The notes below the pieces were generated by a model. It was not told where the DNA came from and made no database searches. It was given only the letters and a program-made list of their open reading frames with translations. From Candidatus Thermosaccharophagus yellowstonensis (GTDB lineage: Bacteria; Armatimonadota; Fervidibacteria; Fervidibacterales; Thermosaccharophagaceae): a DNA stretch of 64,000 nt. The translations under genes and the position numbers were made by a program. Where the stretch lies: positions 46,005 through 110,004 of the forward strand of contig JBGOEK010000002.1 in the NCBI GenBank assembly GCA_041537945.1, written 5' to 3'. Of the stretch, positions 8,679 through 46,629 are shown piece after piece (the first letter of the stretch is position 1; every line of letters begins with the position of its first letter).

Positions 8679-11393
8679 GTGATGAGGCTTCGTTGCCTAA
8701 GCGGTAAAGGCATCGCATTATTTGTCTTCATCTCCCTTGCCTTAAACATGGTGTTGCTTCATGGCGTTGCAATCGCTGGGACTGCTGATGAGGATTTCGC
8801 CTTCGCCGTTCGGTTGTATCAGAAGGAGGAGTTAGAGCTCGCAATCGAGGAGTTTGAAAAATTCGTGAAACAACACAGAGACGATGAGCGCATACCAGAA
8901 GCTCTTATCGTTCTTGGGGACTGCTACTTCAGGTTGAAACGCTATGAGCAAGCGTTGAAAGCTTTTCAGAGCGCTGCAAAGGAAGCCTCGGTCAGAGGCA
9001 GAGCTGATGTTGAGGCAAGGGCAACATACTGGGTCGGAGAATCTTACTACCAGATGCGCAAGTATGATGAGGCGATAAATTGGTATGAGATGGTGCTTAA
9101 GAAGTTCCCCAAAGGCGTTGAAGCACCTTATGCGCTCTATTCGCTTGGCTTGGCTATGCGTGAACTCGGGAAGAAGGAGGAGGCGCTCTCATATTTCAAG
9201 CGCTGTGTGGAGGCTTTCCCAGAGAGCGATGTTGCACCGCAATGTCAATGGCTTATTGGTGAATGCCTTCTTGACCTGAAGCGCTATGAGGAGGCTAAGA
9301 GGGCATACGAGGAAGTGTTGAAGCGCTACCCGAAGTCAAAGGAAGTCGCAGACGCCCTCTTGGGGCTTGGGTGGGTCAGCTTCGAACAAGGGAATTACGA
9401 GGAGGCTGCAAAGCTTTTCAACGATGTCGCCAGACATCACCCTGATACTCAGGCTGGCAAAGAAGCTGTTGTCAGGGAAGCCGATTGCTATTTCAACCTC
9501 AAGCGCTACGAACAGGCTCTTGAGCTCTACAGGAAGGTAGCCGACAGCAGGGAAAACCCATTTGCCGACCATGCCATCTACTGGAGTGGGCAATGCCTTC
9601 TGCGCATGAAGCAACCGCAAGCTGCAGCAACCCAGTTCTTGCTCCTCATAAGAGCTATGCCCAATTCGCCATATGTTGCGAGGGCATACTCAGCACTCGG
9701 AGAAGCATACATGGCGATGGAAAGGTTTCAAGAAGCCGAAGAAGCGTTCAAGGTGGCTCTCAAGCATGTTAAGGAGCAAAAGGAAGCCTCACTCATAACT
9801 GCCACCCTCGCCGACTGCCTGCTTAAGCAAGGAAAGTTTGATGAAGCCTCAAAACTCGTTGTTGAACTGCTCAAAGGGATGCCCGAAGATAAAAACATCA
9901 AAGCGCTTGTTGCCACCTTGATGAGACAGCTGGCTCAGGTTGGCGATATCAACATGCTCGCAAAGCTGATTGAGGGCGTGAAACCCACAGAAGAGGTGCT
10001 GGAAGAAGTGGCGTTAGCTTTGTTTGAGAGGGGCAAGAAGGCTTACGAGAACAAGGACTATGAGACTGCCGAACGCATTTACAAACTTTTGCTTGAGCGC
10101 TTCCAGAAGACGAGTGTCACTTCGGCAGTTCTCTTTGCGCTCGGTGCTGTGCATTATGTCCGTGAACGATATGGCGATGCTGAAGCAATCTATGCGGAGC
10201 TCTTAAAGCGCTTCCCCGATGACAAATTCGCACCCGAGGCACACTACTGGCGTGCAAATTCTCTCTGGATGCTTAAGCGCTTCGCCGAAGCACATGATGA
10301 GTTCTCCGCTTTCATCAAATCTGGATCAAAGGACGAGGCTAAAATCGTAACAGCGCTCTACAGGGACGGGCTTTGCCTTTATGAGTTGAAGCGGTTTGAA
10401 GAGGCTATATCGAGGTTTGAGCTACTGCTGAAGGAGCATCCAAATTCTGAACTTTGCGATGATGCACTCTACCAACTGAGCTGGGTCTATATAGACGCAG
10501 ACAAACGAGATAGCGCGATGAACGCGCTCAAGAGGCTGATAGAACAGCACAAGCAAAGCCAATATGTGCCAGAGGCTCATTTCCTCATAGGCGAGTTATT
10601 GCTGATGCGAAAGCAAGCTGATGAAGCCGTTGCACATTACGAGGAATGCATCAAGCTCTCGTCAGGCAAGGACGAGGAGTTATGCGGTAAGGCGTATTAC
10701 AGGTATGGCTGGGCGCTCTTGACGCTGAAGCGAAAAGCCGAAGCGCTCAAAGCGTTTGAGGAGGCTCTAAAAAGACAGCTACCCGACGATGTAAAGGCTG
10801 ACGCCATTTTGCAGGTTGGTTACCTGCAGTTTAATGAGCGCAAGTTCAACGAGGCATTGTCTTCATTTGAGCGTTTGCTCAAAGAGCATCCACAATCCCC
10901 TCTTTCCAAATTCGCTCTCCTATACAAAGGCAAATGCTTGAACGAGCTTAACAAGTTCGCCGAAGCTGAAGCTGTGCTACAGCAGTTGATTGAGAAGTAT
11001 CCGAACGAAGCGTTCATACCGAGTGCGAAGTTTGAGCTTGCATGGGCTAAGCAGAACAGGAAGCAATATGACACAGCCATTGAGCTATACAAAAGCGTTG
11101 CATCATCTGAGGGGGCTGGCGAGTTAGCCGTTGAGGCACAGTTTAGGGTGGGCGAATGCATGCTATCAAAGGGCGACACGAAAGAAGCGCTGAGGGAGTT
11201 TTTGAGGGTAGCCCTGCTTTACGAAGATTTGCCAGAGTGGGCTGCTGCTTCGCATTTCTATGCGGGGCTGTGTTATGAGCAACTCGGTGAAAATGAGAAA
11301 GCCGAAAAGGCTTACAGGACAGTGCTTGAGAAGTATCCACAAACGAAGTGGGCGGAGAAGGCTAAGGAGTGCCTGAAGAAGCTTAACAGGTGA
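8679..11393 (+). CDS. Large tetratricopeptide-repeat protein with YbgF/CpoB-like TPR units, N-terminal signal/anchor
   Basis: 904 aa. The N-terminus is hydrophobic (GIALFVFISLALNMVLLHGVAIAG). More than 15 TPR-like units follow, of the form A.Y..GECY...K.Y.EA...F......P.S..A..A.Y..G. Confidence 0.85.
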   Translation: MMRLRCLSGKGIALFVFISLALNMVLLHGVAIAGTADEDFAFAVRLYQKEELELAIEEFEKFVKQHRDDERIPEALIVLGDCYFRLKRYEQALKAFQSAAKEASVRGRADVEARATYWVGESYYQMRKYDEAINWYEMVLKKFPKGVEAPYALYSLGLAMRELGKKEEALSYFKRCVEAFPESDVAPQCQWLIGECLLDLKRYEEAKRAYEEVLKRYPKSKEVADALLGLGWVSFEQGNYEEAAKLFNDVARHHPDTQAGKEAVVREADCYFNLKRYEQALELYRKVADSRENPFADHAIYWSGQCLLRMKQPQAAATQFLLLIRAMPNSPYVARAYSALGEAYMAMERFQEAEEAFKVALKHVKEQKEASLITATLADCLLKQGKFDEASKLVVELLKGMPEDKNIKALVATLMRQLAQVGDINMLAKLIEGVKPTEEVLEEVALALFERGKKAYENKDYETAERIYKLLLERFQKTSVTSAVLFALGAVHYVRERYGDAEAIYAELLKRFPDDKFAPEAHYWRANSLWMLKRFAEAHDEFSAFIKSGSKDEAKIVTALYRDGLCLYELKRFEEAISRFELLLKEHPNSELCDDALYQLSWVYIDADKRDSAMNALKRLIEQHKQSQYVPEAHFLIGELLLMRKQADEAVAHYEECIKLSSGKDEELCGKAYYRYGWALLTLKRKAEALKAFEEALKRQLPDDVKADAILQVGYLQFNERKFNEALSSFERLLKEHPQSPLSKFALLYKGKCLNELNKFAEAEAVLQQLIEKYPNEAFIPSAKFELAWAKQNRKQYDTAIELYKSVASSEGAGELAVEAQFRVGECMLSKGDTKEALREFLRVALLYEDLPEWAAASHFYAGLCYEQLGENEKAEKAYRTVLEKYPQTKWAEKAKECLKKLNR

Positions 11394-11427
11394 TGTTTGC
11401 ACATCACTCTAAGAAGGGGGCGATAGG

Positions 11428-12081
11428 ATGAGCAGTGTGATTGAATTCATCATGAGGGGAGGACCGTTTGAGCTTGTGCTCTTGGTTTGCTCAATAGTCA
11501 TGGTCGCTCTCTTCCTTGAGCGCCTATGGACATACCACATCATCGCACGCAAAAATCGCATCGTCAAGAAGGAAGTCGAAGAGGCACTGAAGCGTGGCAT
11601 GGTGAACGATGTGCTGAGGGCTTGCGAAGCCAATATTAGCACTGTAGGGGCAGTGGTAGCAGCTGGATTGCGTAGGATGCACATGGGAGTTGAGGTCATG
11701 CAGGATGCGATGAACTTTGCGATTGCCTCAGCACAGTCGTTCCTTGAGAAGTATCTTGTCTGGCTTTCAACGATTGCGACTATAGCGCCACTCCTCGGTT
11801 TCCTTGGGACTGTCTCAGGGTTATACAAGGCTTTCGTCCAAGTCACTGTCTATGGGCTTGGAGACCCAACGAAGTTCGCAGCAGGTGTCGCTGAGGCTTT
11901 AATAACGACTCTCACAGGACTTGTGATAGCCATACCAGCAAACCTCGCTTACAATTACTTCATCAACAAAGTTGATGCCTTCGCAATTGAGATGGAAGCT
12001 GTAGCGAGGGAACTGATAGAACTGCAACAGGCTACGGCTCTTCAAGGGGCAGGTGACAAAAGTGCGGTTGCAACGAAGTAG
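11428..12081 (+). CDS. MotA/TolQ/ExbB-family proton channel protein
   Basis: 217 aa with three predicted TM segments. The C-terminal half, LSTIATIAPLLGFLGTVSGLYKAF...GVAEALITTLTGLVIAIPANLAYNYF, is the conserved MotA_ExbB core. Confidence 0.9.
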   Translation: MSSVIEFIMRGGPFELVLLVCSIVMVALFLERLWTYHIIARKNRIVKKEVEEALKRGMVNDVLRACEANISTVGAVVAAGLRRMHMGVEVMQDAMNFAIASAQSFLEKYLVWLSTIATIAPLLGFLGTVSGLYKAFVQVTVYGLGDPTKFAAGVAEALITTLTGLVIAIPANLAYNYFINKVDAFAIEMEAVARELIELQQATALQGAGDKSAVATK

Positions 12082-12499
12082 TAGGAGGATTACGCCAACG
12101 ATACCGATGGTGACGATGTCCGACGTAGCTTTCTTGCTCATCATATTCTTCCTGCTGACAACCACATTCTCGCGAGATACAGGCTTGAAGCTGAAGCTTC
12201 CTGGCGCACTGTCGCCACAGCCGATAAAGCCACAGGAAATAACAATCCGCATAACCGCAGACAGGCAAATCTATGTGGATGACCAACCTGTCCTACCTTC
12301 GCAACTTGAAGGTGTGCTGAGAAAAAGGATAAGCGAGACTGGCGTGAGGGAAGTGACAATCCGTGGTGACGCTGAAATACCATACTGGGTAGCCGTCGCC
12401 GTCATGGATACGGTGAAGAGGGTCGGGGCGAGAGTTGCAGCAATAGCTGCAGAACCTGTCCCAAGGATTGAATGGGAACGATGGGAGAGAAAGAGATAG
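12053..12499 (+). CDS. ExbD/TolR-family biopolymer transport protein
   Basis: The basic N-terminus is followed by ITPTIPMVTMSDVAFLLIIFFLLTTTF (ExbD TM signature with the conserved Asp), then a periplasmic domain (ITIRITADRQIYVDDQPV...). It overlaps the exbB-like gene by 29 nt. The exact start is uncertain (GTG 12053 or 12062). Confidence 0.88.
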   Translation: MTKVRLQRSSRRITPTIPMVTMSDVAFLLIIFFLLTTTFSRDTGLKLKLPGALSPQPIKPQEITIRITADRQIYVDDQPVLPSQLEGVLRKRISETGVREVTIRGDAEIPYWVAVAVMDTVKRVGARVAAIAAEPVPRIEWERWERKR

Positions 12500-27123: not shown

Positions 27124-28254
27124 GTGCTCAGTGAATTGACCACTTGGGATAGATACATCCTTAGGTTGGGCACATTCTCATTTCTCGTAGGCGTGGGCAT
27201 ATTCTCTGCCTTCCTCATAGCTGGTGAACTCCTGCGCCGCTCACTTGAGTTGATCATGGAGCAAGGTGCTCCAGTTGAAGATGCACTGCAATTCTTCGTC
27301 CTGCGCTTGCCGAACATCGTAACAATGAGCCTTCCAATGGCTATGTTGCTTGCATCCGTCATTGTCATCGGACAGCTCAGCCACGATAACGAGATACTCG
27401 CCCTCTTCAGCAGTGGCATAAGCTTTGCACGCATATGTTCAGCATTGCTTTTCATCGGCGTGATGGCATCGCTTCTGGCTTTCTTCTTGCGCAACTACTT
27501 GATGCCACAAAGCGACAGGGCTGCGGAAAGGGTGATAAGACGCATCTTGGGAAAACCAGCCCCCACATCAACCATCGTCCTTCGCCAACCACCGTGTGGC
27601 GAGCTAAGACAGCTTGCAATCGTTCAAAGGTTTGAGCCATCAAAAGGCATCATGCACGGAATCCAAATCATCTTTTACGACAGCGGTCAGCCGATTGGCA
27701 TGCTCTCAGCGAAGCAAGCGAGGTGGGAAGGAAATGGGTGGGTCTTCATTGATGGCTTTTGGCAGGTTCTCTACCCAGGGAAGATAGCGATAGCCAATAA
27801 GTTCAAAGAGATGCGCTCACAAGACTGGCAGGGCTTGCCACAACCCCCACTGCAGAAGAACATCGAAGATGTGAGGATTGAGGCGATGCAACTCGATCCA
27901 GATAAAATGACCATAGGCGAGCTGAAGGAGAAGATTGAGCACATGCGACGCCACAATGTAAGCAAGCTCCAACAACTCCTTTACCTAACTGAACTGCACA
28001 ACAGGTTTGCGTTTGCGTGGGCATGCTTCCTTATGGCATTGCTCGGTGCACCACTCGGGTTGCGCACAAGGCAAGCTGGCTTGGGGTTGGCACTCGGCTT
28101 GAGCATCCTCATCGTGCTCATTTACTACTTCGCATGGTATTATGGGACAATTCTCGCAAGGCAAGCCAAAATACCAATCTTGGTTGGGTGCTGGCTACCA
28201 AACGCAATCTCGTTCGCACTCGGTGTAGCTATGCTATACCGTAGCGTCCGATGA
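27124..28254 (+). CDS. LptF/LptG-family (YjgP/YjgQ) LPS export permease
   Basis: 376 aa. TM helices lie at both ends with a central periplasmic beta-jellyroll-like insert. LDRYILR-like N-terminus (WDRYILRLGTFSFLVGV) and C-terminus LLGAPLGL...LGLSILIVLIYY. Only one such permease gene is present here. Confidence 0.8.
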   Translation: MLSELTTWDRYILRLGTFSFLVGVGIFSAFLIAGELLRRSLELIMEQGAPVEDALQFFVLRLPNIVTMSLPMAMLLASVIVIGQLSHDNEILALFSSGISFARICSALLFIGVMASLLAFFLRNYLMPQSDRAAERVIRRILGKPAPTSTIVLRQPPCGELRQLAIVQRFEPSKGIMHGIQIIFYDSGQPIGMLSAKQARWEGNGWVFIDGFWQVLYPGKIAIANKFKEMRSQDWQGLPQPPLQKNIEDVRIEAMQLDPDKMTIGELKEKIEHMRRHNVSKLQQLLYLTELHNRFAFAWACFLMALLGAPLGLRTRQAGLGLALGLSILIVLIYYFAWYYGTILARQAKIPILVGCWLPNAISFALGVAMLYRSVR

Positions 28255-28338
28255 ATGGGAGACGAAAGATTTGGCTCACCGATTGCTCACTCTCTCAAAG
28301 CCAATGGCTTGGATAGGTTAGAACTCACTCCAACGAGG

Positions 28339-28369
28339 TTGACGGTTGACTTTTTTTTTGCGCTATACT
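28339..28369 (+). promoter_or_regulatory. Putative promoter upstream of the prepilin-like gene (TTGACG/TTGACT ... TGCGCTATACT)
   Basis: TTGACG lies at 28339-28344 and TTGACT at 28346-28351, followed by a T9 run and then TATACT at 28364-28369. Spacers are 19 or 12 nt, so the geometry is non-canonical. Confidence 0.3.
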
Positions 28370-28498
28370 CAATTGTGAGATTGGGTGCAAGTTAAGTTGA
28401 GAGGGAGGTGATGGAAAAGGGAAGGCGTTAGTTAGGCGAGTTGAAGGGATAGCAAGCTAAGTGCGAAGAACAAAACTCGCATGAAGGAGGGATGTGAG

Positions 28499-29233
28499 AT
28501 GAAAGCGACGAAGGGAAAGAGAGTTGGCTTCACGCTGATAGAGCTGCTGGTGGTGATTGCCATAATCGCCATCTTGGCAGCGATTCTGTTCCCAGTGTTT
28601 GCGAAGGCGAGGGAGAAGGCAAGGACTGCAAGCTGTCAGAGCAACTTGAAGCAAATCGGGCTGGCTATCTTGCAGTATTGCCAGGACTACGACGAACTCT
28701 TCCCGGTTGTGCGTGGCTATGACCCGACGATCGGGAGGCTTTGGACATGGAAGTCGGAGATCTGGCCTTATGTGAAGAATGACAAAGTGTTCACATGCCC
28801 ATCAAGCCCGTATATCAATCAGCCATATTGCGGTGATTGTATAAACTGCGCTGCCCAGAGCATTGAACAGCCCTATCTTGACCGCTCATATGCATGGGCT
28901 ACCGCGAGCGGTGATAACCCCGCAACAGATAACTTCTCATATGGCTGGGGCGCTCGCCCACCATCACAAGCTACGATAAAAGCCCCGTCAATGACTTTGA
29001 TGATCGTTGAAACGCATACAACATGCATAGACCATTGCGCTTGGTGCAGTGGCGGCGCGCGCTGTGACCATAATGCCTATGGTAACTTCCTTTTCGTTGA
29101 TGGGCATGTGAAGATAATGAAGTGGACACAGACATACCAACCAGTTTGCATGTGGGAATTTAGCAGGGCAGCAGCGGGAACAACCTGTAGAGACCCAAAC
29201 TGGGTTAACACTGTGAGGGCTGAATGCCGTTGA
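28499..29233 (+). CDS. Prepilin-type N-terminal cleavage/methylation domain protein with HX9DG (DUF1559-like) C-terminal motif
   Basis: [51 protein letters not shown] (type IV pilin-like leader plus helix). The C-terminus [13 protein letters not shown] gives H-x9-DG. The ATG at 28499 follows GGAGGG. Confidence 0.9.
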
Positions 29234-29481
29234 TGCGCCACCGTTAATTCCTCTTTGGGCTAAATCACGGGGCAGGGGACACGGGAAAGGATTCACTTCC
29301 AATGCAGTTTTGGTGCTGAGCAAATTTGGCAGTTCGTAATCTGCCTTCAAATCCCGTGTCACTTGCCCTATGGCTTTTATCCCTCACCAAATGGAGTGCG
29401 CCATACTTCTGCATTGGGTATCCCTTGAGGTAATCACCTCGCTATCATTCACTGCTCGTCGTGCCGAGGGGGTGAGAGGAC

Positions 29482-30117
29482 TTGATTGAGGATGGATATG
29501 TTGTTAGCGTTTTTTGCCAGCCTATTGAAAGTGGCGTTTGCGCAGGCGCAAGGATGCGTGTTGATGTGCTTACAACTCGCCTCGAGTTGTTCAAGGAGTG
29601 GCTTGAGGATGTTTTGAACAGCGTTGGCGTTACGAAGGTTTTGAATGTGGCTCGCAAGAACTCGCTTTGGTATATGACATTTGGTCTTGCGTGCTGTGCG
29701 ATTGAGATGATGCACACAATCGGACCAAAGTATGACTTTGACAGGTATGGCATCATCCCGAGGGCGACACCGAGGCAAGCTGACTTGATGATCGTTGCTG
29801 GAACCGTAACTTACAAGATGGCTCCGAGGATAAAACTGCTCTACGAGCAAATGGCTGAGCCGAAGTATGTGATTGCCATGGGTGCATGCGCAACGAGTGG
29901 CGGTCCATTTTACGACTCGTATAGCGTGCTTAACGGTGTGGATAAAGTCATACCTGTTGATGTCTATGTTCCGGGGTGTCCACCGACACCTGAGCAACTC
30001 CTTTGGGGTGTTAAGATGCTTCAGGATAAGATACTTCGCCACGAGGTAAGACGCATGCCGAGAGATAAGAAAGAAGCGCTGACCTCATTTGCTGAGAAGC
30101 ATTTGAAGGGGCGGTGA
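29482..30117 (+). CDS. nuoB: NuoB-like [4Fe-4S] protein (NADH-quinone oxidoreductase subunit B / hydrogenase small-subunit-like family)
   Basis: [67 protein letters not shown], and [11 protein letters not shown]; all four N2-cluster Cys contexts are present. The start is uncertain (TTG 29482 or ATG 29554). Confidence 0.85.
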
Positions 30118-30124
30118 GCTTGAT

Positions 30125-30685
30125 GTGTCTTTAAGCAGGCTGATTGAAGTCACTGGCGGATTGGTGAAGGGCTTATGCGTCACTGGGAAGAACTTTTACC
30201 GAACGGTCATCCTAAGGCAAGCTATGACGATAACGGAGAAGTGGGGCTCAAGGAAGATAGCTGACAGATACCGTGGCATAATCTCGCTAACAACGGATAT
30301 GAAAGTTGGTAGGGAAAACTGCATTGGTTGCATGGCTTGCATGCGCATATGCCCAGACCACTGCATCTACATTGAGACTGAAAGGCGCGAGGGGCACAGG
30401 GGGCGTTACCCTGTTAAGTTCATTTTTGACCTCAGCCTATGTAGCTTCTGTGGGCTTTGCGTTGAAGCCTGCCCAACACCGTCGCTCATCCACAGTCACA
30501 TCTGGCAATTCGCTGGCTACTCAAGGTCTGATTTAATCCTGAGCAAAGAGCAACTGTTAAAGTGGGGAGATGAAGAACAACTGAGGCGCGGGGATGCGGA
30601 AGTCATAACAGGTAAGCGCTCACAGCAACGCCAGTTGAAAGGGGAGGCTGAAAGCCAAAGTGAAAGCAAGGGTGATTCCTTATGA
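30125..30685 (+). CDS. nuoI: NuoI-like 2x[4Fe-4S] ferredoxin-type protein
   Basis: RYRGIISL...CIGCMACMRICPDHCIYIE and FDLSLCSFCGLCVEACPTPSLIHS match the two CxxCxxCxxxCP motifs and spacing of NuoI/EchF-type subunits. A charged C-terminal tail follows. Confidence 0.7.
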   Translation: MSLSRLIEVTGGLVKGLCVTGKNFYRTVILRQAMTITEKWGSRKIADRYRGIISLTTDMKVGRENCIGCMACMRICPDHCIYIETERREGHRGRYPVKFIFDLSLCSFCGLCVEACPTPSLIHSHIWQFAGYSRSDLILSKEQLLKWGDEEQLRRGDAEVITGKRSQQRQLKGEAESQSESKGDSL

Positions 30686-32043
30686 CGCAACTTGAAGCAG
30701 CCAAGAAGGGGATAATCACGGAGCAAATGAAGTTTGTGGCTGAAGAAGAGGGTGTTGATGTTAACTGGCTATTGCAAAAGGTTGCCGAAGGCAAGGTGGT
30801 CATACCTTGCAACAAAGTTCGCAAGCCTGAGCCAGTGGGCATAGGAGAGGGGCTACGCACAAAGGTTAACGCAAACATAGGCACATCCCCGATGCGTGTC
30901 GACATAAACGAGGAACTGAAAAAGGTCGAGATGTGCATTAGATACGGCGCAGACACGATCATGGACTTGAGCACGGGTGGCAACTTGGACGAGATAAGGA
31001 TGGAAATCCTGAAGCGCTGGAGGAAACCGCTTGGCACCGTCCCGATTTATCAGGTTGCTCAGGAACTCTTGAAAGCGCGCAAGCCGATAACGGAGATGAC
31101 TGTTGAACATTTGTTTGAAGTGATTGAGAGGCAGGCTGAACAAGGCGTTGATTTCATGACAGTCCATTGTGGCGTGACAAAACATGCTCTTGAACTGCTA
31201 AGGCGCTCAAGGAGAATTGGGGGGATTGTGAGCAGGGGAGGAAGCCTGTTAGCTGTGTGGATGGTGGCAAACGATGCGGAGAACCCTCTCTATGAGCATT
31301 TTGATAGACTGCTTGAGATAGCCAAGAAATACGATGTGACATTGAGCTTAGGCGATGGCATGCGTCCTGGGGCAATCGCTGATGCTGGCGATGCTGTGCA
31401 GTGGTATGAGACATCAATCCTCGGCGAATTGACATTGCGTGCTTGGGAAGCTGGTGTTCAGGTGATGATTGAAGGTCCAGGGCATGTCCCAATACACCAC
31501 ATTGAAGCGCATGTGAAGATGATGAAATCGCTCTGCCACGGTGCCCCGATATACTTGCTTGGTCCTATCACATGCGATGTTGCAGCAGGTTACGACCATA
31601 TCGCTGCAGCGATTGGTGGGGCAATAGCAGCAGTAGCAGGTGCTGACTTCCTATGCTATGTCACTCCAGCAGAACACCTCGGCTTACCATCCCCTGAGGA
31701 TGTCAGGGTTGGGATAATAGCAAGCAGGATAGCTGCGCACTCAGCCGACATTGCTAAAGGGATAAAGGGAGCATATGAGTGGGATGAGCGGATGTCAAAG
31801 GCGAGGAAGGAGCTGAACTGGAAAGCCATGTTTGAACTCGCCATGGATAGCGACAGGGCGATGGAGTATAGGGCTGACATGAAGGAAGTCAGCAAAGGCG
31901 TGTGTAGCATGTGCGGGAGCTTCTGCGCTGTTGCCACATCCACTTTCATTGAACGCGTGCTCCGCGAGGGCGCAAAGGGTGATCTCGTCAAAGCTCCCCC
32001 AGAGGGGTGTCCCCTGATGACGGTGGAACAAAATGACGAGTGA
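30682..32043 (+). CDS. thiC: Phosphomethylpyrimidine synthase ThiC
   Basis: MTQLEAAKKGIITEQMKFVAEEEGVD, TKVNANIGTS, DTIMDLSTGG, TVPIYQ, VDFMTVHCG, GIVSRGGS and HVPIHHIEAHV, plus the C-terminal CSMCGSFC cluster motif. The start overlaps the nuoI-like stop (ATGA). Confidence 0.95.
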   Translation: MTQLEAAKKGIITEQMKFVAEEEGVDVNWLLQKVAEGKVVIPCNKVRKPEPVGIGEGLRTKVNANIGTSPMRVDINEELKKVEMCIRYGADTIMDLSTGGNLDEIRMEILKRWRKPLGTVPIYQVAQELLKARKPITEMTVEHLFEVIERQAEQGVDFMTVHCGVTKHALELLRRSRRIGGIVSRGGSLLAVWMVANDAENPLYEHFDRLLEIAKKYDVTLSLGDGMRPGAIADAGDAVQWYETSILGELTLRAWEAGVQVMIEGPGHVPIHHIEAHVKMMKSLCHGAPIYLLGPITCDVAAGYDHIAAAIGGAIAAVAGADFLCYVTPAEHLGLPSPEDVRVGIIASRIAAHSADIAKGIKGAYEWDERMSKARKELNWKAMFELAMDSDRAMEYRADMKEVSKGVCSMCGSFCAVATSTFIERVLREGAKGDLVKAPPEGCPLMTVEQNDE

Positions 32044-33052
32044 GGAACGGCTCATGAAAGAAGCTGAGCAAATACTTGAGCGCTTTAACAGGGTAAGCGT
32101 GCTCGTCATTGGCGACCTGATGCTTGACGAGTATATCATTGGCGATGCCGAACGCATATCACCAGAAGCACCAGTGCCAGTGCTCCTGCGCCGTGAAAGG
32201 AGGATCGGACCTGGTGGAGCTGCAAATGTGGTTTACAACTTGATCTCAATGGGCGCAAGGACAATCGTCGGAGGCGTCATAGGCAAAGACAGCGCTGGCG
32301 AAGAACTCAAAAGCCTGCTACGCGAGATCGGCGCTGATACAAGCGCAATTATCGTTGATGAATCGCGTCCGACAACGCTCAAGACGCGCATAATCGCTCA
32401 CAAGCAACAGCTCGTCCGAATTGACCATGAGGTGAGAAAGACGATAGATGACAAGACATGCGATGCGCTCATCGAGCGAGTAGCTTCAATGCTCGCTCAA
32501 GTTGATGCCGTCATAATCTCGGACTACGCAAAGGGCGTCGTCACAAGCAGGCTGACAGATTCGCTGCGGAGCGCTCAAGAGCGATATGGCTTTTTGCTCT
32601 GCGGTGGTCCGAAGCCGAAGAACATAGCCTCGTTCGTGGGCTTTGACCTGCTAAGCTTCAACATGTCGGAGGCAAGGGAATCAGCGATGTTGAATGGCGA
32701 GCTGTCGGACGATTACAAGCTCATCGGGAAGACGCTCGCGAGCCGTCTGCAAATCCGTTGGCTCGTCATAACTCGTGGCGAGGAGGGCGCAAGCCTTTTT
32801 GATACGAGGGGTTGGCTTTGCGATATACCGTCGTATCGTGTGACTGTTTACGATGTTGCTGGTGCTGGCGATACATTTCTTGCAGCGATAGTCCTTGCGC
32901 TATGTTGTGGTGCTGACTTTGTGACCGCAGCAAAAATCGCGTGCGCAGCTGGAGCAGTAGCCGTGTGCAAAAGCGGAGTAGCACCAGCCACAGTTGATGA
33001 GATAAAGCGAATAATGAGCTACGGCTCGATAGCCGTCAAAGGTGAGGTGTGA
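32033..33052 (+). CDS. hldA: D-glycero-beta-D-manno-heptose-7-phosphate kinase-like PfkB-family kinase (RfaE/HldE domain I type)
   Basis: VLVIGDLMLDEYIIGDAERISPEAPVPVLLRRERRIGPGGAANVVYNLISMGA and C-terminal DVAGAGDTFLAA. It overlaps the thiC end by 11 nt. Its TGA (33050-33052) sits 1 nt before the likely thiD ATG. Confidence 0.8.
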   Translation: MTSEERLMKEAEQILERFNRVSVLVIGDLMLDEYIIGDAERISPEAPVPVLLRRERRIGPGGAANVVYNLISMGARTIVGGVIGKDSAGEELKSLLREIGADTSAIIVDESRPTTLKTRIIAHKQQLVRIDHEVRKTIDDKTCDALIERVASMLAQVDAVIISDYAKGVVTSRLTDSLRSAQERYGFLLCGGPKPKNIASFVGFDLLSFNMSEARESAMLNGELSDDYKLIGKTLASRLQIRWLVITRGEEGASLFDTRGWLCDIPSYRVTVYDVAGAGDTFLAAIVLALCCGADFVTAAKIACAAGAVAVCKSGVAPATVDEIKRIMSYGSIAVKGEV

Positions 33053-33053
33053 A

Positions 33054-33839
33054 ATGCCACCCTTGCCTTGTGCGCTGACCATAGCAGGCTCAGATTCATG
33101 TGGAGGCGCTGGCATACAGGCTGATTTGAAAACTTTTACAGCACTCGGCGTTTACGGCGCCTGCGTCATAACAGCGCTCACGGCACAAAACACCTTGGGG
33201 ATAAACGCAATACACAAAGTGCCACCAGAATTTGTGGCTACGCAGATTGATTCGGTTGCAAGCGATTTGAAAATAAATGCAACGAAGGTTGGGATGCTGT
33301 TGGATGCTGATATCATTGAGGTCGTTGCAATGAAGGTGAAACAATACGGCTTGCAACCGCTAATAGTTGATCCAGTGATGGTTGCTGGGACTGGTGCGAG
33401 GTTGTTAATGGAAGAGGCAATCGAAGCCCTCAAACGCCTGCTCATTCCGCTGACAACGATACTGACGCCAAACGCATTTGAAGCTGAGGCTTTGACTGGA
33501 ATCAAAGTGAGTTCACTTTCGGACGCAAGGAAGGCAGCCATAATATTGCATCAACTTGGTGCATCCACAGTTGTCGTAAAGGGAGGACATGTAGAAGGCG
33601 ATGACGCCGTCGATTTGATTTACGATGGCGTTCGATTCATTGAGACACGCTCACGCCGAATCATGAAAGGGAAGCTCCATGGCGCTGGATGTGTCTTCTC
33701 CTCAGCTATAACAGCCAACCTCGCAAAGGGCATGGATCAGATTGAAGCCATACAAAGAGCGAAACGCTTTGTTCACCACTCAATCAAGGCGTCCCAACCC
33801 GTCGGCAAAGGATTGATACCAGTTCAACCTCTGTTCTAA
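33054..33839 (+). CDS. thiD: Hydroxymethylpyrimidine/phosphomethylpyrimidine kinase ThiD
   Basis: ALTIAGSDSCGGAGIQADLKTFTALGVYGACVITALTAQNTLG, DPVMVA and GAGCVFSSAITANLAKG. The ATG at 33054 follows AGGTGAGG; the track ORF starts with GTG at 33042. Confidence 0.92.
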   Translation: MPPLPCALTIAGSDSCGGAGIQADLKTFTALGVYGACVITALTAQNTLGINAIHKVPPEFVATQIDSVASDLKINATKVGMLLDADIIEVVAMKVKQYGLQPLIVDPVMVAGTGARLLMEEAIEALKRLLIPLTTILTPNAFEAEALTGIKVSSLSDARKAAIILHQLGASTVVVKGGHVEGDDAVDLIYDGVRFIETRSRRIMKGKLHGAGCVFSSAITANLAKGMDQIEAIQRAKRFVHHSIKASQPVGKGLIPVQPLF

Positions 33840-33851
33840 CTTGCTCAAACG

Positions 33852-34127
33852 CTACTTAGGCTTACCATACTTGGCTTCGAACTCCTCATCTGAGAGCTCG
33901 AAGAAGTCGCGGTTCATCTGTATGTAGTGTCTCAAGTCTGGTGGGACATCGTCTTCGTGTTGTGGGACTGGCGGATCTTGTGGGCATACCTCATTGCATG
34001 TCCCGCACTCGGTGCACTCATCTGGGTTGATGTAAACCATATCCGAGCCCTCTTGGATGCAGCTCACAGGGCATTCCTCCACACATGTCATGCACTTCGT
34101 GCACCCCTCAGTTATGACATACGCCAT
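33852..34127 (-). CDS. 2x[4Fe-4S] ferredoxin
   Basis: MAYVITEGCTKCMTCVEECPVSCI and YINPDECTECGTCNEVCP. Confidence 0.88.
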   Translation of the reverse strand: MAYVITEGCTKCMTCVEECPVSCIQEGSDMVYINPDECTECGTCNEVCPQDPPVPQHEDDVPPDLRHYIQMNRDFFELSDEEFEAKYGKPK

Positions 34128-34341
34128 CTTTTACTCCCTCCCCCACTCTCAGTGTTTTGATGCGCCTCATCCCTTGCATCGTTAACCTCACGCAAGTATA
34201 ACACATCAACATTGCCACTGCCTCACGCTACGCCAACCGTTATAAAGGTTGCACCTGTAGGTGCGCTATATTAAGTTTAGCTTGCAGTGGTAGTGTGACG
34301 GCGAAAGAACGGAAGGACACAAGTGAGAAGGTGATAAACTC

Positions 34342-35274
34342 ATGCATCACTTGAAGCGCAAGCGCAGAAGGAAACTGCTCGCACTATTTGCAGTGCTCTT
34401 GGGGAGTTGTGCTGTTGCAATCTGCTTGCTTTTGTTGCCTCGCGTTTCCCTTCGGGAGCGAGGAGTTTTGCAACCCGCGCCGAAGACACCGCAACTCGCT
34501 AAGAGAAGCAAACCACCTAAAGAGGAATCAACGACCACTTTCAAACCGCCTGTGGGTTATGCCATACCCATACTTTGCTACCACGACTTCCGCGAGGGAG
34601 GCAAACATGCTTATTGGGCGATACCGCCAAAGCGCTTTGAAACGCACCTTCAGATGCTTACAGCGATGGGCTTCACATTCCTGAAGATGAGCGAAGCCGT
34701 TGAACTCATGCAGGGTAGATGGAATAAACCCATACCACGCCGTCCTATAGTGATCACGATTGACGATGGTTTTCGCTCGGCATACACCGTTGCATATCCG
34801 CTCCTGCGCAAGTATAAGGCGAAGGCTACCCTTTTCGTTTACACGAATGCAATCGGCAAGTTCGGGCTCTCGTGGGATCAGTTGCGCGAAATGATTCAAT
34901 CGGGCATCGTAGAGGTTGCATCACACACCGTTTCGCACATGCACCCGAAGCGCCTGAGGAAGCTAAGCAGAGATGCCTACAGAGAGCGCCTCGCATATGA
35001 ATTCACCGCCTCAAAGAAGATACTTGAAGAAAACCTCGGCATCACCGTGAACGGTCTTGCGTATACCGGAGGGGTAGCCGATGCAGTAGCTGTTGAGATG
35101 GCTCGAGAGGCTGGGTATCGCTGGGCAGTGAAGATAGCGCCGTTGCCAATGACAGCTCAAACAAACCCCTACCTCATACCGAGATATGGTATCAGCAGGC
35201 AAACCACAACGATGGTTTTGAAGGCATGGCTTTCTCAACCACGCTATGGCGCAGTTTGTAGCAGTTTGCCTTGA
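34342..35274 (+). CDS. Polysaccharide deacetylase (NodB-homology) family protein, membrane-anchored
   Basis: N-terminal TM, then IPILCYHDF, VITIDDGFRSAYTVAYPLLRKYKAKATLFVYT and EVASHTVSH. Confidence 0.82.
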   Translation: MHHLKRKRRRKLLALFAVLLGSCAVAICLLLLPRVSLRERGVLQPAPKTPQLAKRSKPPKEESTTTFKPPVGYAIPILCYHDFREGGKHAYWAIPPKRFETHLQMLTAMGFTFLKMSEAVELMQGRWNKPIPRRPIVITIDDGFRSAYTVAYPLLRKYKAKATLFVYTNAIGKFGLSWDQLREMIQSGIVEVASHTVSHMHPKRLRKLSRDAYRERLAYEFTASKKILEENLGITVNGLAYTGGVADAVAVEMAREAGYRWAVKIAPLPMTAQTNPYLIPRYGISRQTTTMVLKAWLSQPRYGAVCSSLP

Positions 35275-41414: not shown

Positions 41415-42737
41415 ATGTTGCAAACAAAGGTCGGCAATGCAAGCGGTGCATCGGATAGCTTACTTAAGCTCTCTGACGATGAGTTTGAGCTACTCCTTGA
41501 TTGTGTTCGTTGTGGCTTCTGCTTGGTTTCATGCCCTGTGTTCACCCAAACATTTGATGAGGTTGACTCACCGAGGGGAAGAATACACATCTTGCGAGCG
41601 CTCGCCGAGGGAAGAGTTAGCGTAACGCAAACACTGCTAAACCATCTTTACTCATGCTTGGCATGCAGAGCTTGTCAGGCAACATGCCCATCTGGTGTCA
41701 GATACGGTTTCATAAATGATATCGCAAGAGCGAAGCTCGAGCGCAAAGGCTTTGGGGTAACCAAACGGAACAAACTGCTGAGGCTACTCATAAGGCATGT
41801 CTTCCCGCACAGGAAGCGCTTTGAACTGCTCGTCAGGTTCATTGAGGCATGCAGGGGGGTCGGTCTCATCAGCATCGCAAAGCGCTTTGAAAATTTTTCT
41901 CAAGGATTGCGCCGATGGCTCCAGCTCGAAGAGATGCTCCCAAACACTCGTGTGAGGAGAGCCTTCTACGATGGTCGCACTGCAATAAAGCCGAAGCAAA
42001 AAACGAGGATGAGAGTTGGCTTTCATCTTGGCTGTGCCTCAGAAGTCCTGTTGAAGGATGTCAATGAAGCGAGCATAAAAGTGCTCTTGGAATTGGGGTG
42101 CGAGGTCATCATACCTGAAGGACAAACCTGTTGTGGTGCGATAGCTATGCACACCGGCTTTGACGAAGATGCAAAGTGGTTTGCCAAGCGCAACATCGAA
42201 GCGTTTGAGCGCTACGATGTCGATGTTATCGTCTCAAACGCTGCTGGATGCAGTGCTGCGTTGAAGGAGTATGCGCAATGGCTAAATGACGACGAAGCAT
42301 TCAGAGAGCGCGCAGTAAAGTTTTCACGGCTTGTGCGTGACTGGACTGAGGTTGTTGCTCAACTTCCATTTCGTGAGCACATGAAGCCATTGCAGTTGCG
42401 CGTTACATACGATGATCCATGCCACCTGCTCCATGCGCAAGGGATAAGAGAGCAACCTCGGAAATTGATAAGGGCGATACCGTCAATCGATTTCGTAGAA
42501 CTTCGTGAAGCTGAGATGTGTTGCGGTGGGGCTGGCGTTCATGGCATGCTTTTTACAGAGCTGTCAACGGAGCTACTTGAGCGCAAGCTCAAAAACATCA
42601 AAGAGACATGTGCACAAGTCGTTGTGACAGCAAACACAGGTTGCAAGCTACAGCTTCAATACGGCATCAAAAAGCAGGGTCTCGATGTGAAGGTGATGCA
42701 CATAGCTGAGTTGATCGCTTTATCCTTCGGAGTCTGA
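41415..42737 (+). CDS. (Fe-S)-binding protein with two CCG domains (GlcF / heterodisulfide-reductase-D-like)
   Basis: CVRCGFCLVSCPVF and CLACRACQATCPSGV, followed by two Cys-rich CCG motifs (GQTCCGAIAMH, AEMCCGGAGVHG). Confidence 0.8.
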   Translation: MLQTKVGNASGASDSLLKLSDDEFELLLDCVRCGFCLVSCPVFTQTFDEVDSPRGRIHILRALAEGRVSVTQTLLNHLYSCLACRACQATCPSGVRYGFINDIARAKLERKGFGVTKRNKLLRLLIRHVFPHRKRFELLVRFIEACRGVGLISIAKRFENFSQGLRRWLQLEEMLPNTRVRRAFYDGRTAIKPKQKTRMRVGFHLGCASEVLLKDVNEASIKVLLELGCEVIIPEGQTCCGAIAMHTGFDEDAKWFAKRNIEAFERYDVDVIVSNAAGCSAALKEYAQWLNDDEAFRERAVKFSRLVRDWTEVVAQLPFREHMKPLQLRVTYDDPCHLLHAQGIREQPRKLIRAIPSIDFVELREAEMCCGGAGVHGMLFTELSTELLERKLKNIKETCAQVVVTANTGCKLQLQYGIKKQGLDVKVMHIAELIALSFGV

Positions 42738-46196: not shown

Positions 46197-46291
46197 GGAG
46201 GGATGCGCCGAGTGGCTAAGGCGGCGGCCTGCTAAGCCGTAGGGGGGTTATGAAGCCTCCCTCCCGGGTTCGAATCCCGGTCCCTCCGCCA
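46197..46291 (+). tRNA. tRNA-Ser (anticodon GCU), CCA encoded
   Basis: Acceptor GGAGGGA/TCCCTCC. Anticodon stem-loop GCGGC-CUGCUAA-GCCGU. Long variable arm. T-arm CCGGG-TTCGAAT-CCCGG. The 3' end is GCCA. Confidence 0.9.
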
Positions 46292-46317
46292 CTAACTTTG
46301 AAAACGAATTTCAAGGC

Positions 46318-46395
46318 GCGCCCGTAGCTCAGCTGGAATAGAGCACGGGACTACGGATCCCGGGGTCGGGGGTTCGAATCCCTCCGGGCGCGCCA
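46318..46395 (+). tRNA. tRNA-Arg (anticodon ACG), CCA encoded
   Basis: Acceptor GCGCCCG/CGGGCGC. D-arm GCTC-AGCTGGAATA-GAGC. Anticodon stem-loop CGGGA-CUACGGA-UCCCG. T-loop TTCGAAT. Confidence 0.9.
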
Positions 46396-46405
46396 AATGA
46401 ATTAT

Positions 46406-46479
46406 GCGCCCGTAGCTCAGCAGGACAGAGCGCTGGCCTCCGGAGCCAGATGTCGCGCGTTCGAATCGCGCCGGGCGCA
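46406..46479 (+). tRNA. tRNA-Arg (anticodon CCG), no encoded CCA
   Basis: Acceptor GCGCCCG/CGGGCGC. Anticodon stem-loop CUGGC-CUCCGGA-GCCAG. T-arm GCGCG-TTCGAAT-CGCGC. Confidence 0.9.
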
Positions 46480-46509
46480 CTGATGCAAGTTAAGAAGGTG
46501 ATCAATAGC

Positions 46510-46582
46510 GCCCCTGTAGCTCAAGAGGACAGAGCGGCGGCCTCCTAAGCCGCAAGTCCCGGTTCGAGTCCGGGCAGGGGCA
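46510..46582 (+). tRNA. tRNA-Arg (anticodon CCU), no encoded CCA
   Basis: Acceptor GCCCCTG/CAGGGGC. Anticodon stem-loop GCGGC-CUCCUAA-GCCGC. T-arm CCCGG-TTCGAGT-CCGGG. Confidence 0.9.
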
Positions 46583-46629
46583 CTTTGTGAAATCAACTCT
46601 CGCATCGGCTTTCCCATCGGTGAGACTCC

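Follow-up and report, generated by a model that had tools for sequence, protein, structure and literature searches.

Why should two iron-sulphur (Fe-S) subunits of respiratory complex I be encoded directly ahead of thiamine biosynthesis genes? The question is raised by a block of five open reading frames (ORFs) in a 64-kb stretch of DNA from Candidatus Thermosaccharophagus yellowstonensis (contig JBGOEK010000002.1, positions 46,005 to 110,004), the whole of which we refer to as the window. Within this block nuoB, a nuoI-like gene, thiC, a PfkB-family kinase gene and thiD lie head to tail on the plus strand. A preliminary description of the locus, made from the letters of the sequence, offered two readings of the first two genes: that their products are a dedicated electron-delivery module for ThiC, or that they are the remnant of a split nuo locus. 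Our results support the second of these. We put at roughly 80% the probability that the block is a split complex I locus that stands beside a thiamine cluster by descent, a reading that draws on sequences typical of complex I, on a detached and conserved gene pair, and on the fragmented nuo clusters of other Armatimonadota. The organism is a member of the Fervidibacteria, a class of the Armatimonadota. The closest relatives of the encoded proteins carry the labels Candidatus Fervidibacter, Fervidibacterota or Armatimonadota; the Fervidibacteria are hot-spring thermophiles (PMC11535203).

Identity of the NuoB and NuoI-like proteins

The first gene, nuoB (29482-30117, plus strand), starts with TTG and has an alternative ATG at 29554. 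Its product matches Pfam Oxidored_q6 (PF01058) with 105 bits and passes curated profiles with ease, scoring 240 bits against NCBIfam NF005012 (cutoff 116) and 222 against TIGR01957 (cutoff 143). All four cysteines of cluster N2 are present: Cys71 and Cys72 as a tandem CC, Cys136 in GACATSGG (motif GxCxxxGG), and Cys166 in PGCPP. Among solved structures, it aligns with mitochondrial NDUFS7 at 200 bits and with Thermus Nqo6 at 160, compared with 128 for the MBS small subunit, 117 for MbhJ and 104 for the hydrogenase subunit HycG, while hydrogenase profile models reach no more than 33 bits. From these matches we identify NuoB as complex I subunit B (PSST/Nqo6 type), the predicted ligand of Fe-S cluster N2.

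The nuoI-like gene (30125-30685, plus strand, GTG start) follows after a spacer of 7 nt and encodes a subunit of the TYKY/Nqo9 type, with two predicted [4Fe-4S] clusters. The two CxxCxxCxxxCP cluster motifs, CIGCMACMRICP (residues 66-77) and CSFCGLCVEACP (residues 106-117), are invariant in 11/11 relatives. The best NCBIfam matches of this protein are all NuoI models, each of which scores below its cutoff (NF004538, 94.4 bits against 135; TIGR01971, 90.1 against 113). Its alignment with NDUFS8 covers residues 13-152 with 77 bits, runs past the ferredoxin core and takes in the NuoI-specific segments KGL.VT...F and R(F/Y)RG that lie outside that core; hydrogenase relatives score 36-45 bits, HycF being the highest at 45. 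Outside the Fervidibacteria, its closest homolog (40% identity) is encoded in the company of nuoH, nuoJ and nuoK. The protein is thus a probable ortholog of complex I NuoI, the subunit of clusters N6a and N6b.

In all Fervidibacteria-type NuoI proteins, moreover, the C terminus is extended by a charged stretch of some 35-90 residues, which in the window protein covers residues ~150-186. Its invariant positions T162, G163, K164, S166 and Q168 (TGK.S.Q) are absent from the canonical NuoI proteins compared.

A NuoB-like and a NuoI-like subunit with two [4Fe-4S] clusters are found likewise in group 4 [NiFe]-hydrogenases, in Mbh and Mbs, and in formate hydrogenlyase (HycG-HycF, MbhJ-MbhN, EchC-EchF), and in hyc the genes for the two are adjacent. 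By the scores given above, however, both members of the window pair are closer to complex I (200 against 104-128 bits for B, 77 against 36-45 for I). An energy-converting hydrogenase module of the Ech, Mbh or Hyc kind was rejected on these bit scores and because no gene for a large subunit lies nearby: neither a NuoD-like large-subunit gene nor a membrane-subunit gene was found in the window or at any of the nine loci, described below, that carry the pair.

The two proteins therefore share with NuoB (Nqo6/PSST/NDUFS7) and NuoI (Nqo9/TYKY/NDUFS8) of complex I their domain families, their Fe-S ligands and their best profile and structure matches. We also compared how strongly they are constrained, using NuoB and NuoI from 36 canonical operons and taking all pairs. 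For NuoB, the Fervidibacteria proteins shared a median of 62.6% identity with operon-encoded ones, compared with 58.9% among the operon-encoded proteins themselves; for NuoI, the corresponding values were 30.9% and 33.1%. Neither NuoB nor NuoI shows signs of relaxed or redirected constraint, and as far as sequence can tell both appear to be ordinary complex I subunits.

The detached pair and the remaining nuo genes

In a complex I operon, nuoB and nuoI stand inside the order nuoA-B-C-D-(E-F-G)-H-I-J-K-L-M-N, whereas here they form an isolated adjacent pair. We found such a pair in nine Fervidibacteria-type lineages, always with nuoI directly downstream of nuoB. Only in three of the nine is the pair followed by thiC, the kinase gene, thiD and a ferredoxin gene, these being the window itself (L001-L006), L007/L008 (GCA_025062195.1) and L181/L182 (GCA_032161105.1), which make up one genus-level clade with identities of 80-83% for NuoB, 81-82% for ThiC and 70-72% for the kinase. 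The pair has no adjoining thiC in L009 and L015 (both Candidatus Fervidibacter sp.), L012 (GCA_032160965.1), L013, L016 and L179. Downstream of it are found instead an LmeA-like gene (L009, L179), Ldh and then LmeA (L013), or a gene for a solute-binding protein (L012). The L015 pair lies alone between radC and valS, and since both of these flanking genes are on the opposite strand, it is there a transcription unit of its own. Because the pair is kept among unrelated neighbours elsewhere, we regard nuoB-nuoI as the conserved entity and thiC as a lineage-specific neighbour. Co-occurrence across genomes thus holds for nuoB with nuoI, in nine lineages, but for thiC with the pair only among three close relatives. 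Strictly, the latter adjacency is not unique to the present genome, as the preliminary description had allowed that it might be, since three related species share it.

Both the pairing of nuoB with nuoI and its joining to thiC-hldA-thiD were not found in the literature that we searched. Among the best 80 loci of a NuoB scan of a genome collection, 78 were canonical operons of other phyla and two were of the Fervidibacteria type (L015 and L016). A metagenome scan with an alignment of Fervidibacteria NuoI used the generic pattern CGLCVE[AV]C and returned no locus of the pair type among the matches listed, which were canonical NuoI proteins of at most 44% identity.

As had been described, no other nuo gene lies near the pair: nuoA, C, D, H, J and K are absent from the window, as judged by Pfam on all ORFs of at least 130 residues and by tblastn with canonical subunits. 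Scattering of this kind has precedents. Complex I genes are likewise distributed over several loci, mixed with unrelated genes, in the dispersed nuo clusters of prokaryotes, which are common generally (PMC3144371), and the genomes of Armatimonadota have been called 'disorganised', with normally operonic genes dispersed (PMC4959169). In two other Armatimonadota (L014, 1-10253, and L175, 1-9659) we find that the atp operon runs into nuoA-B-C-D or into nuoA-B with a CD fusion, after which come unrelated genes. The F-type ATP synthase operon of these two loci is itself interrupted by unrelated genes. In an unclassified bacterium of 34% GC (L010, 1005-6878), nuoI, nuoH, nuoJ and nuoK are separated by other genes. 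These inserts, toxin-antitoxin-like genes of the nucleotidyltransferase/HEPN type and an AAA ATPase gene, mark the nuo cluster as one that mobile or defence-like genes have invaded. The pairing of B with I differs from the cyanobacterial arrangement, in which ndhK (B) stands with ndhC-J, and ndhI with ndhA-G-E.

A candidate for the other half of such a split came from a search with an Armatimonadota NuoD query, in which the best 120 matches were clustered and the contexts of P0186, P0220 and P0219 were read. The first two proved to be canonical nuoA-B-C(D), and the third led to a contig (L178; Logan SRR22388158, 60% GC) with nuoA-nuoC-nuoD-nuoH at 9080-12321, in which only 42 nt separate nuoA from nuoC. 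By tblastn at E≤10, no NuoB or NuoI homolog was detected in its 12.5 kb; the contig stops 177 nt past nuoH, and the position of nuoI falls outside it. The NuoD of this contig is deep-branching, with ~63% identity to all other Armatimonadota NuoD. At the nuoB position it would be the complement expected for a detached B-I pair; the contig is Armatimonadota-like, its membership of the Fervidibacteria being unproven.

There are two further explanations of the pair that bear on its relation to complex I. The first is that it is an extra, paralogous NuoB and NuoI, standing beside a complete nuo operon elsewhere in the genome and serving as an accessory module with a separate function. A second copy could escape detection, given that canonical NuoB fills the lists of the best 120 and the best 80 matches, and the sub-cutoff scores and lineage-specific C-terminal tail of the NuoI-like protein also speak for such a module. 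However, wherever we read the context of a Fervidibacteria-type NuoB (P0016, P0019, P0022, P0023 and P0027), it proved to be of the pair type, and the two Fervidibacteria assemblies among the best 80 loci of the genome scan yielded no second locus. Moreover, the two proteins have diverged from canonical subunits no further than these have from one another, which would not be expected of a neofunctionalised paralog, and a nuoA-C-D-H cluster that lacks nuoB does exist, if of unproven lineage. We therefore consider a paralogous pair unlikely.

The second explanation is that complex I has been lost, leaving nuoB and nuoI as decaying or functionless leftovers. It would account for the finding that ~164 kb of Fervidibacteria-type sequence contains no other nuo gene. 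Yet in nine lineages both reading frames are intact and all cluster ligands are present, the two proteins are as similar to canonical subunits as these are to one another, and F. sacchari has an electron transport chain with which it respires aerobically (PMC11535203), all of which makes us strongly doubt such a loss. In the papers that we searched on the respiration of Fervidibacter, we found nothing on its nuo gene content.

The thiamine genes and their surroundings

What, then, of the genes that follow? The ATGA at 30682-30685 is a 4-nt overlap between the nuoI-like gene and thiC (30682-32043, plus strand), which encodes a phosphomethylpyrimidine synthase of the radical S-adenosylmethionine (SAM) type. 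thiC in turn overlaps by 11 nt the gene for the PfkB-family kinase (32033-33052, plus strand), a Pfam PfkB protein resembling HldA and domain I of RfaE, and the stop codon of the kinase gene is separated by 1 nt from the ATG at 33054 of thiD (33054-33839, plus strand), the gene for hydroxymethylpyrimidine/phosphomethylpyrimidine kinase. Gene callers take the same thiD start, and the same gene boundaries were called independently on identical metagenome contigs (JGI and Logan assemblies). Having re-read all ORFs and junctions, we can confirm the five-gene packing, with its gaps and overlaps, just as it was first described.

Packing of this kind is habitual across the window, where 16 of the 34 co-directional neighbour pairs overlap or are separated by 13 nt or less, and for this reason it provides no evidence of functional coupling. 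Tight pairs with unrelated annotations include protease/phosphodiesterase, TldD/CCG-Fer4, AMP-ligase/RmlD and unknown/DnaG. Another product of the window with Fe-S domains, an HdrD/GlpC-like protein with two CCG domains and a 4Fe-4S dicluster domain (41415-42737, plus strand), is encoded within 9-13 nt of the genes for TldD and an AMP-dependent ligase, in an unrelated tight string of genes.

ThiC requires a low-potential reductant, and the idea that the NuoB/NuoI-like pair is a dedicated module for reducing its radical-SAM [4Fe-4S] cluster draws on the overlap of the nuoI stop with the thiC start, which is found both in the window and in L181, and on the order nuoB-nuoI-thiC, which is kept in three species. 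Against this idea, six other lineages keep the pair in the absence of an adjoining thiC, nuoI and thiC are 160 nt apart in L007, and overlaps as tight as this one are common between unrelated genes of the window. The two proteins are constrained in the same way as complex I subunits, and their similarity to complex I far exceeds that to any soluble or hydrogenase relative. Furthermore, N2 is the cluster of highest potential in complex I and lies at the interface of NuoB and NuoD, and on account of both its potential and its position it would be ill suited to reducing a radical-SAM cluster.

Shared regulation by thiamine pyrophosphate (TPP) was also looked for, in the window cluster and in L007, and was not found. 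In many bacteria thiC is under riboswitch control; in contrast to such TPP-riboswitch-controlled thi operons, the thi block of the window has no riboswitch of this class, as neither a TPP riboswitch nor any other Rfam element was detected at E≤5 in positions 28200-34400 of the window or 6400-12700 of L007. At the gathering score, Rfam gave no match to the TPP (THI-box) riboswitch in the window and eight related loci.

Finally, a conserved small ferredoxin of the FdxA type is encoded next door (33852-34127, minus strand; Fer4 families), convergent on thiD with a spacer of 12 nt. It scores 64.5-82.6 bits against the NCBIfam FdxA models, all below their cutoffs, the closest being FdxA_fam at 64.5 against 65. 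At 89-90% identity in L007 and L181, it is the product of the most conserved gene of the block, above ThiC, NuoB and ThiD. We infer that this ferredoxin is a more plausible low-potential donor for ThiC than NuoB and NuoI. It is a candidate donor also for the complex I-type enzyme, should that enzyme be one without the NADH-oxidising subunits NuoEFG.

Our conclusion is that the proposal of a dedicated electron-delivery module for ThiC is not borne out, given an adjacency limited to one genus-level clade, unaltered constraint and the lack of a TPP riboswitch, and we regard it as very improbable. Just as little credence is given to the related idea that the pair has been fused translationally to thiC for a second job, whether this be the supply of electrons to ThiC or co-regulation in a regulon of Fe-S proteins; if true, it would mean that Fe-S subunits of complex I work outside the complex.

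The assignment of thiC itself is clear, with 651 bits for Pfam ThiC_Rad_SAM and 642 for NCBIfam NF009895 (cutoff 410). The protein aligns with ThiC of Arabidopsis thaliana at 397 bits, and the triad Cys408/411/415 is present. Its cluster motif, CSMCGSFC (CX2CX3C, residues 408-415), lacks one residue relative to its A. thaliana counterpart, CSMCGPKFC. BzaB was rejected as an alternative, since the cutoff of its exception model is 700 bits and the protein reaches 562. ThiD matches TIGR00097 at 325 bits (cutoff 205) and Pfam Phos_pyr_kin (PF08543) at 309.

For the kinase, two roles had been suggested, in lipopolysaccharide (LPS) synthesis as a heptose kinase or, by recruitment, in thiamine metabolism. 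Nothing that we see indicates the latter, while the former is favoured by the best profile, TIGR02198 (rfaE_dom_I), which aligns over the full length at 301.7 bits, and by the sole solved relative, the HldA heptose-7-phosphate kinase 4e84 (166 bits). The kinase thus has in common with HldA and with domain I of HldE both its best profile and its only structural relative; it differs from them in falling below the equivalog cutoff of 345 bits and in having no other heptose-pathway gene nearby, and its substrate is a predicted one only. LPS-transport genes lie a few kb upstream of the kinase gene in the same window. It is probably, on this sequence evidence, a D-glycero-beta-D-manno-heptose-7-phosphate kinase (HldA-like). 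Its position between thiC and thiD is common only to the window, L007 and L181.

A single transcript that starts upstream of nuoB probably carries all five genes, and the intergenic region of 248 nt at that point (29234-29481, plus strand) is probably the promoter region of the block. When the upstream regions of the window, L181 and L007 were aligned, the sole conserved stretch was the 8-nt block GCCATACT, at 29400-29407 in the window and ~75-100 nt upstream of the nuoB start, which may be a -10-like promoter element. A scan with promoter and terminator consensus sequences gave the same counts as in shuffled sequence, and an Rfam search of 29234-29481 matched no family, the TPP riboswitch included.

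Elsewhere in the window there is a cluster of four tRNA genes (46197-46583, plus strand): Ser-GCT, Arg-ACG, Arg-CCG and Arg-CCT.

Origin and meaning of the arrangement

On the reading that we prefer, that of a split complex I locus, nuoB and nuoI would have left the usual nuoA-B-C-D-H-I order in the Fervidibacteria and would persist as a two-gene unit. Their products would join NuoA, C, D, H and J-N, encoded at other loci, in a membrane-bound enzyme of the complex I type, and the remaining nuo genes would be expected elsewhere in the genome. In one genus, this two-gene unit would have come to be co-transcribed with thiC, the HldA-like kinase gene and thiD by accident of descent, the overlaps reflecting general compactness of the genome and not a common function.

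Several observations weigh against this account. No further nuo gene was found in the window or in the ~100 kb that flank the eight related loci, and L178 is not tied to the Fervidibacteria, a tetranucleotide comparison having given no placement with them. The NuoI-like protein scores below every curated NuoI cutoff, and its conserved C-terminal extension is unexplained. Of the three species in which thiC adjoins the pair, two retain the nuoI/thiC overlap, a finding compatible with selected co-expression. Lastly, the evidence comes from the window and related loci and not from a whole genome, so that the single-copy state of the pair, and the presence and location of the other nuo genes, are inferred.

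What the locus presents is an unusual gene order of ordinary members of known families. It carries a caution: where genomes are scrambled and compact, as in the Armatimonadota, joint function cannot be read from genes packed head to tail or from ATGA overlaps, and reasoning by association would in this case have led to a spurious ThiC reductase. Subunits B and I are neighbours in the electron path of complex I, and their genes have been kept together across a class while the other genes of the operon dispersed; this may be relevant to the study of operon decay, to the assembly of complex I and to the annotation of respiration in the Fervidibacteria.

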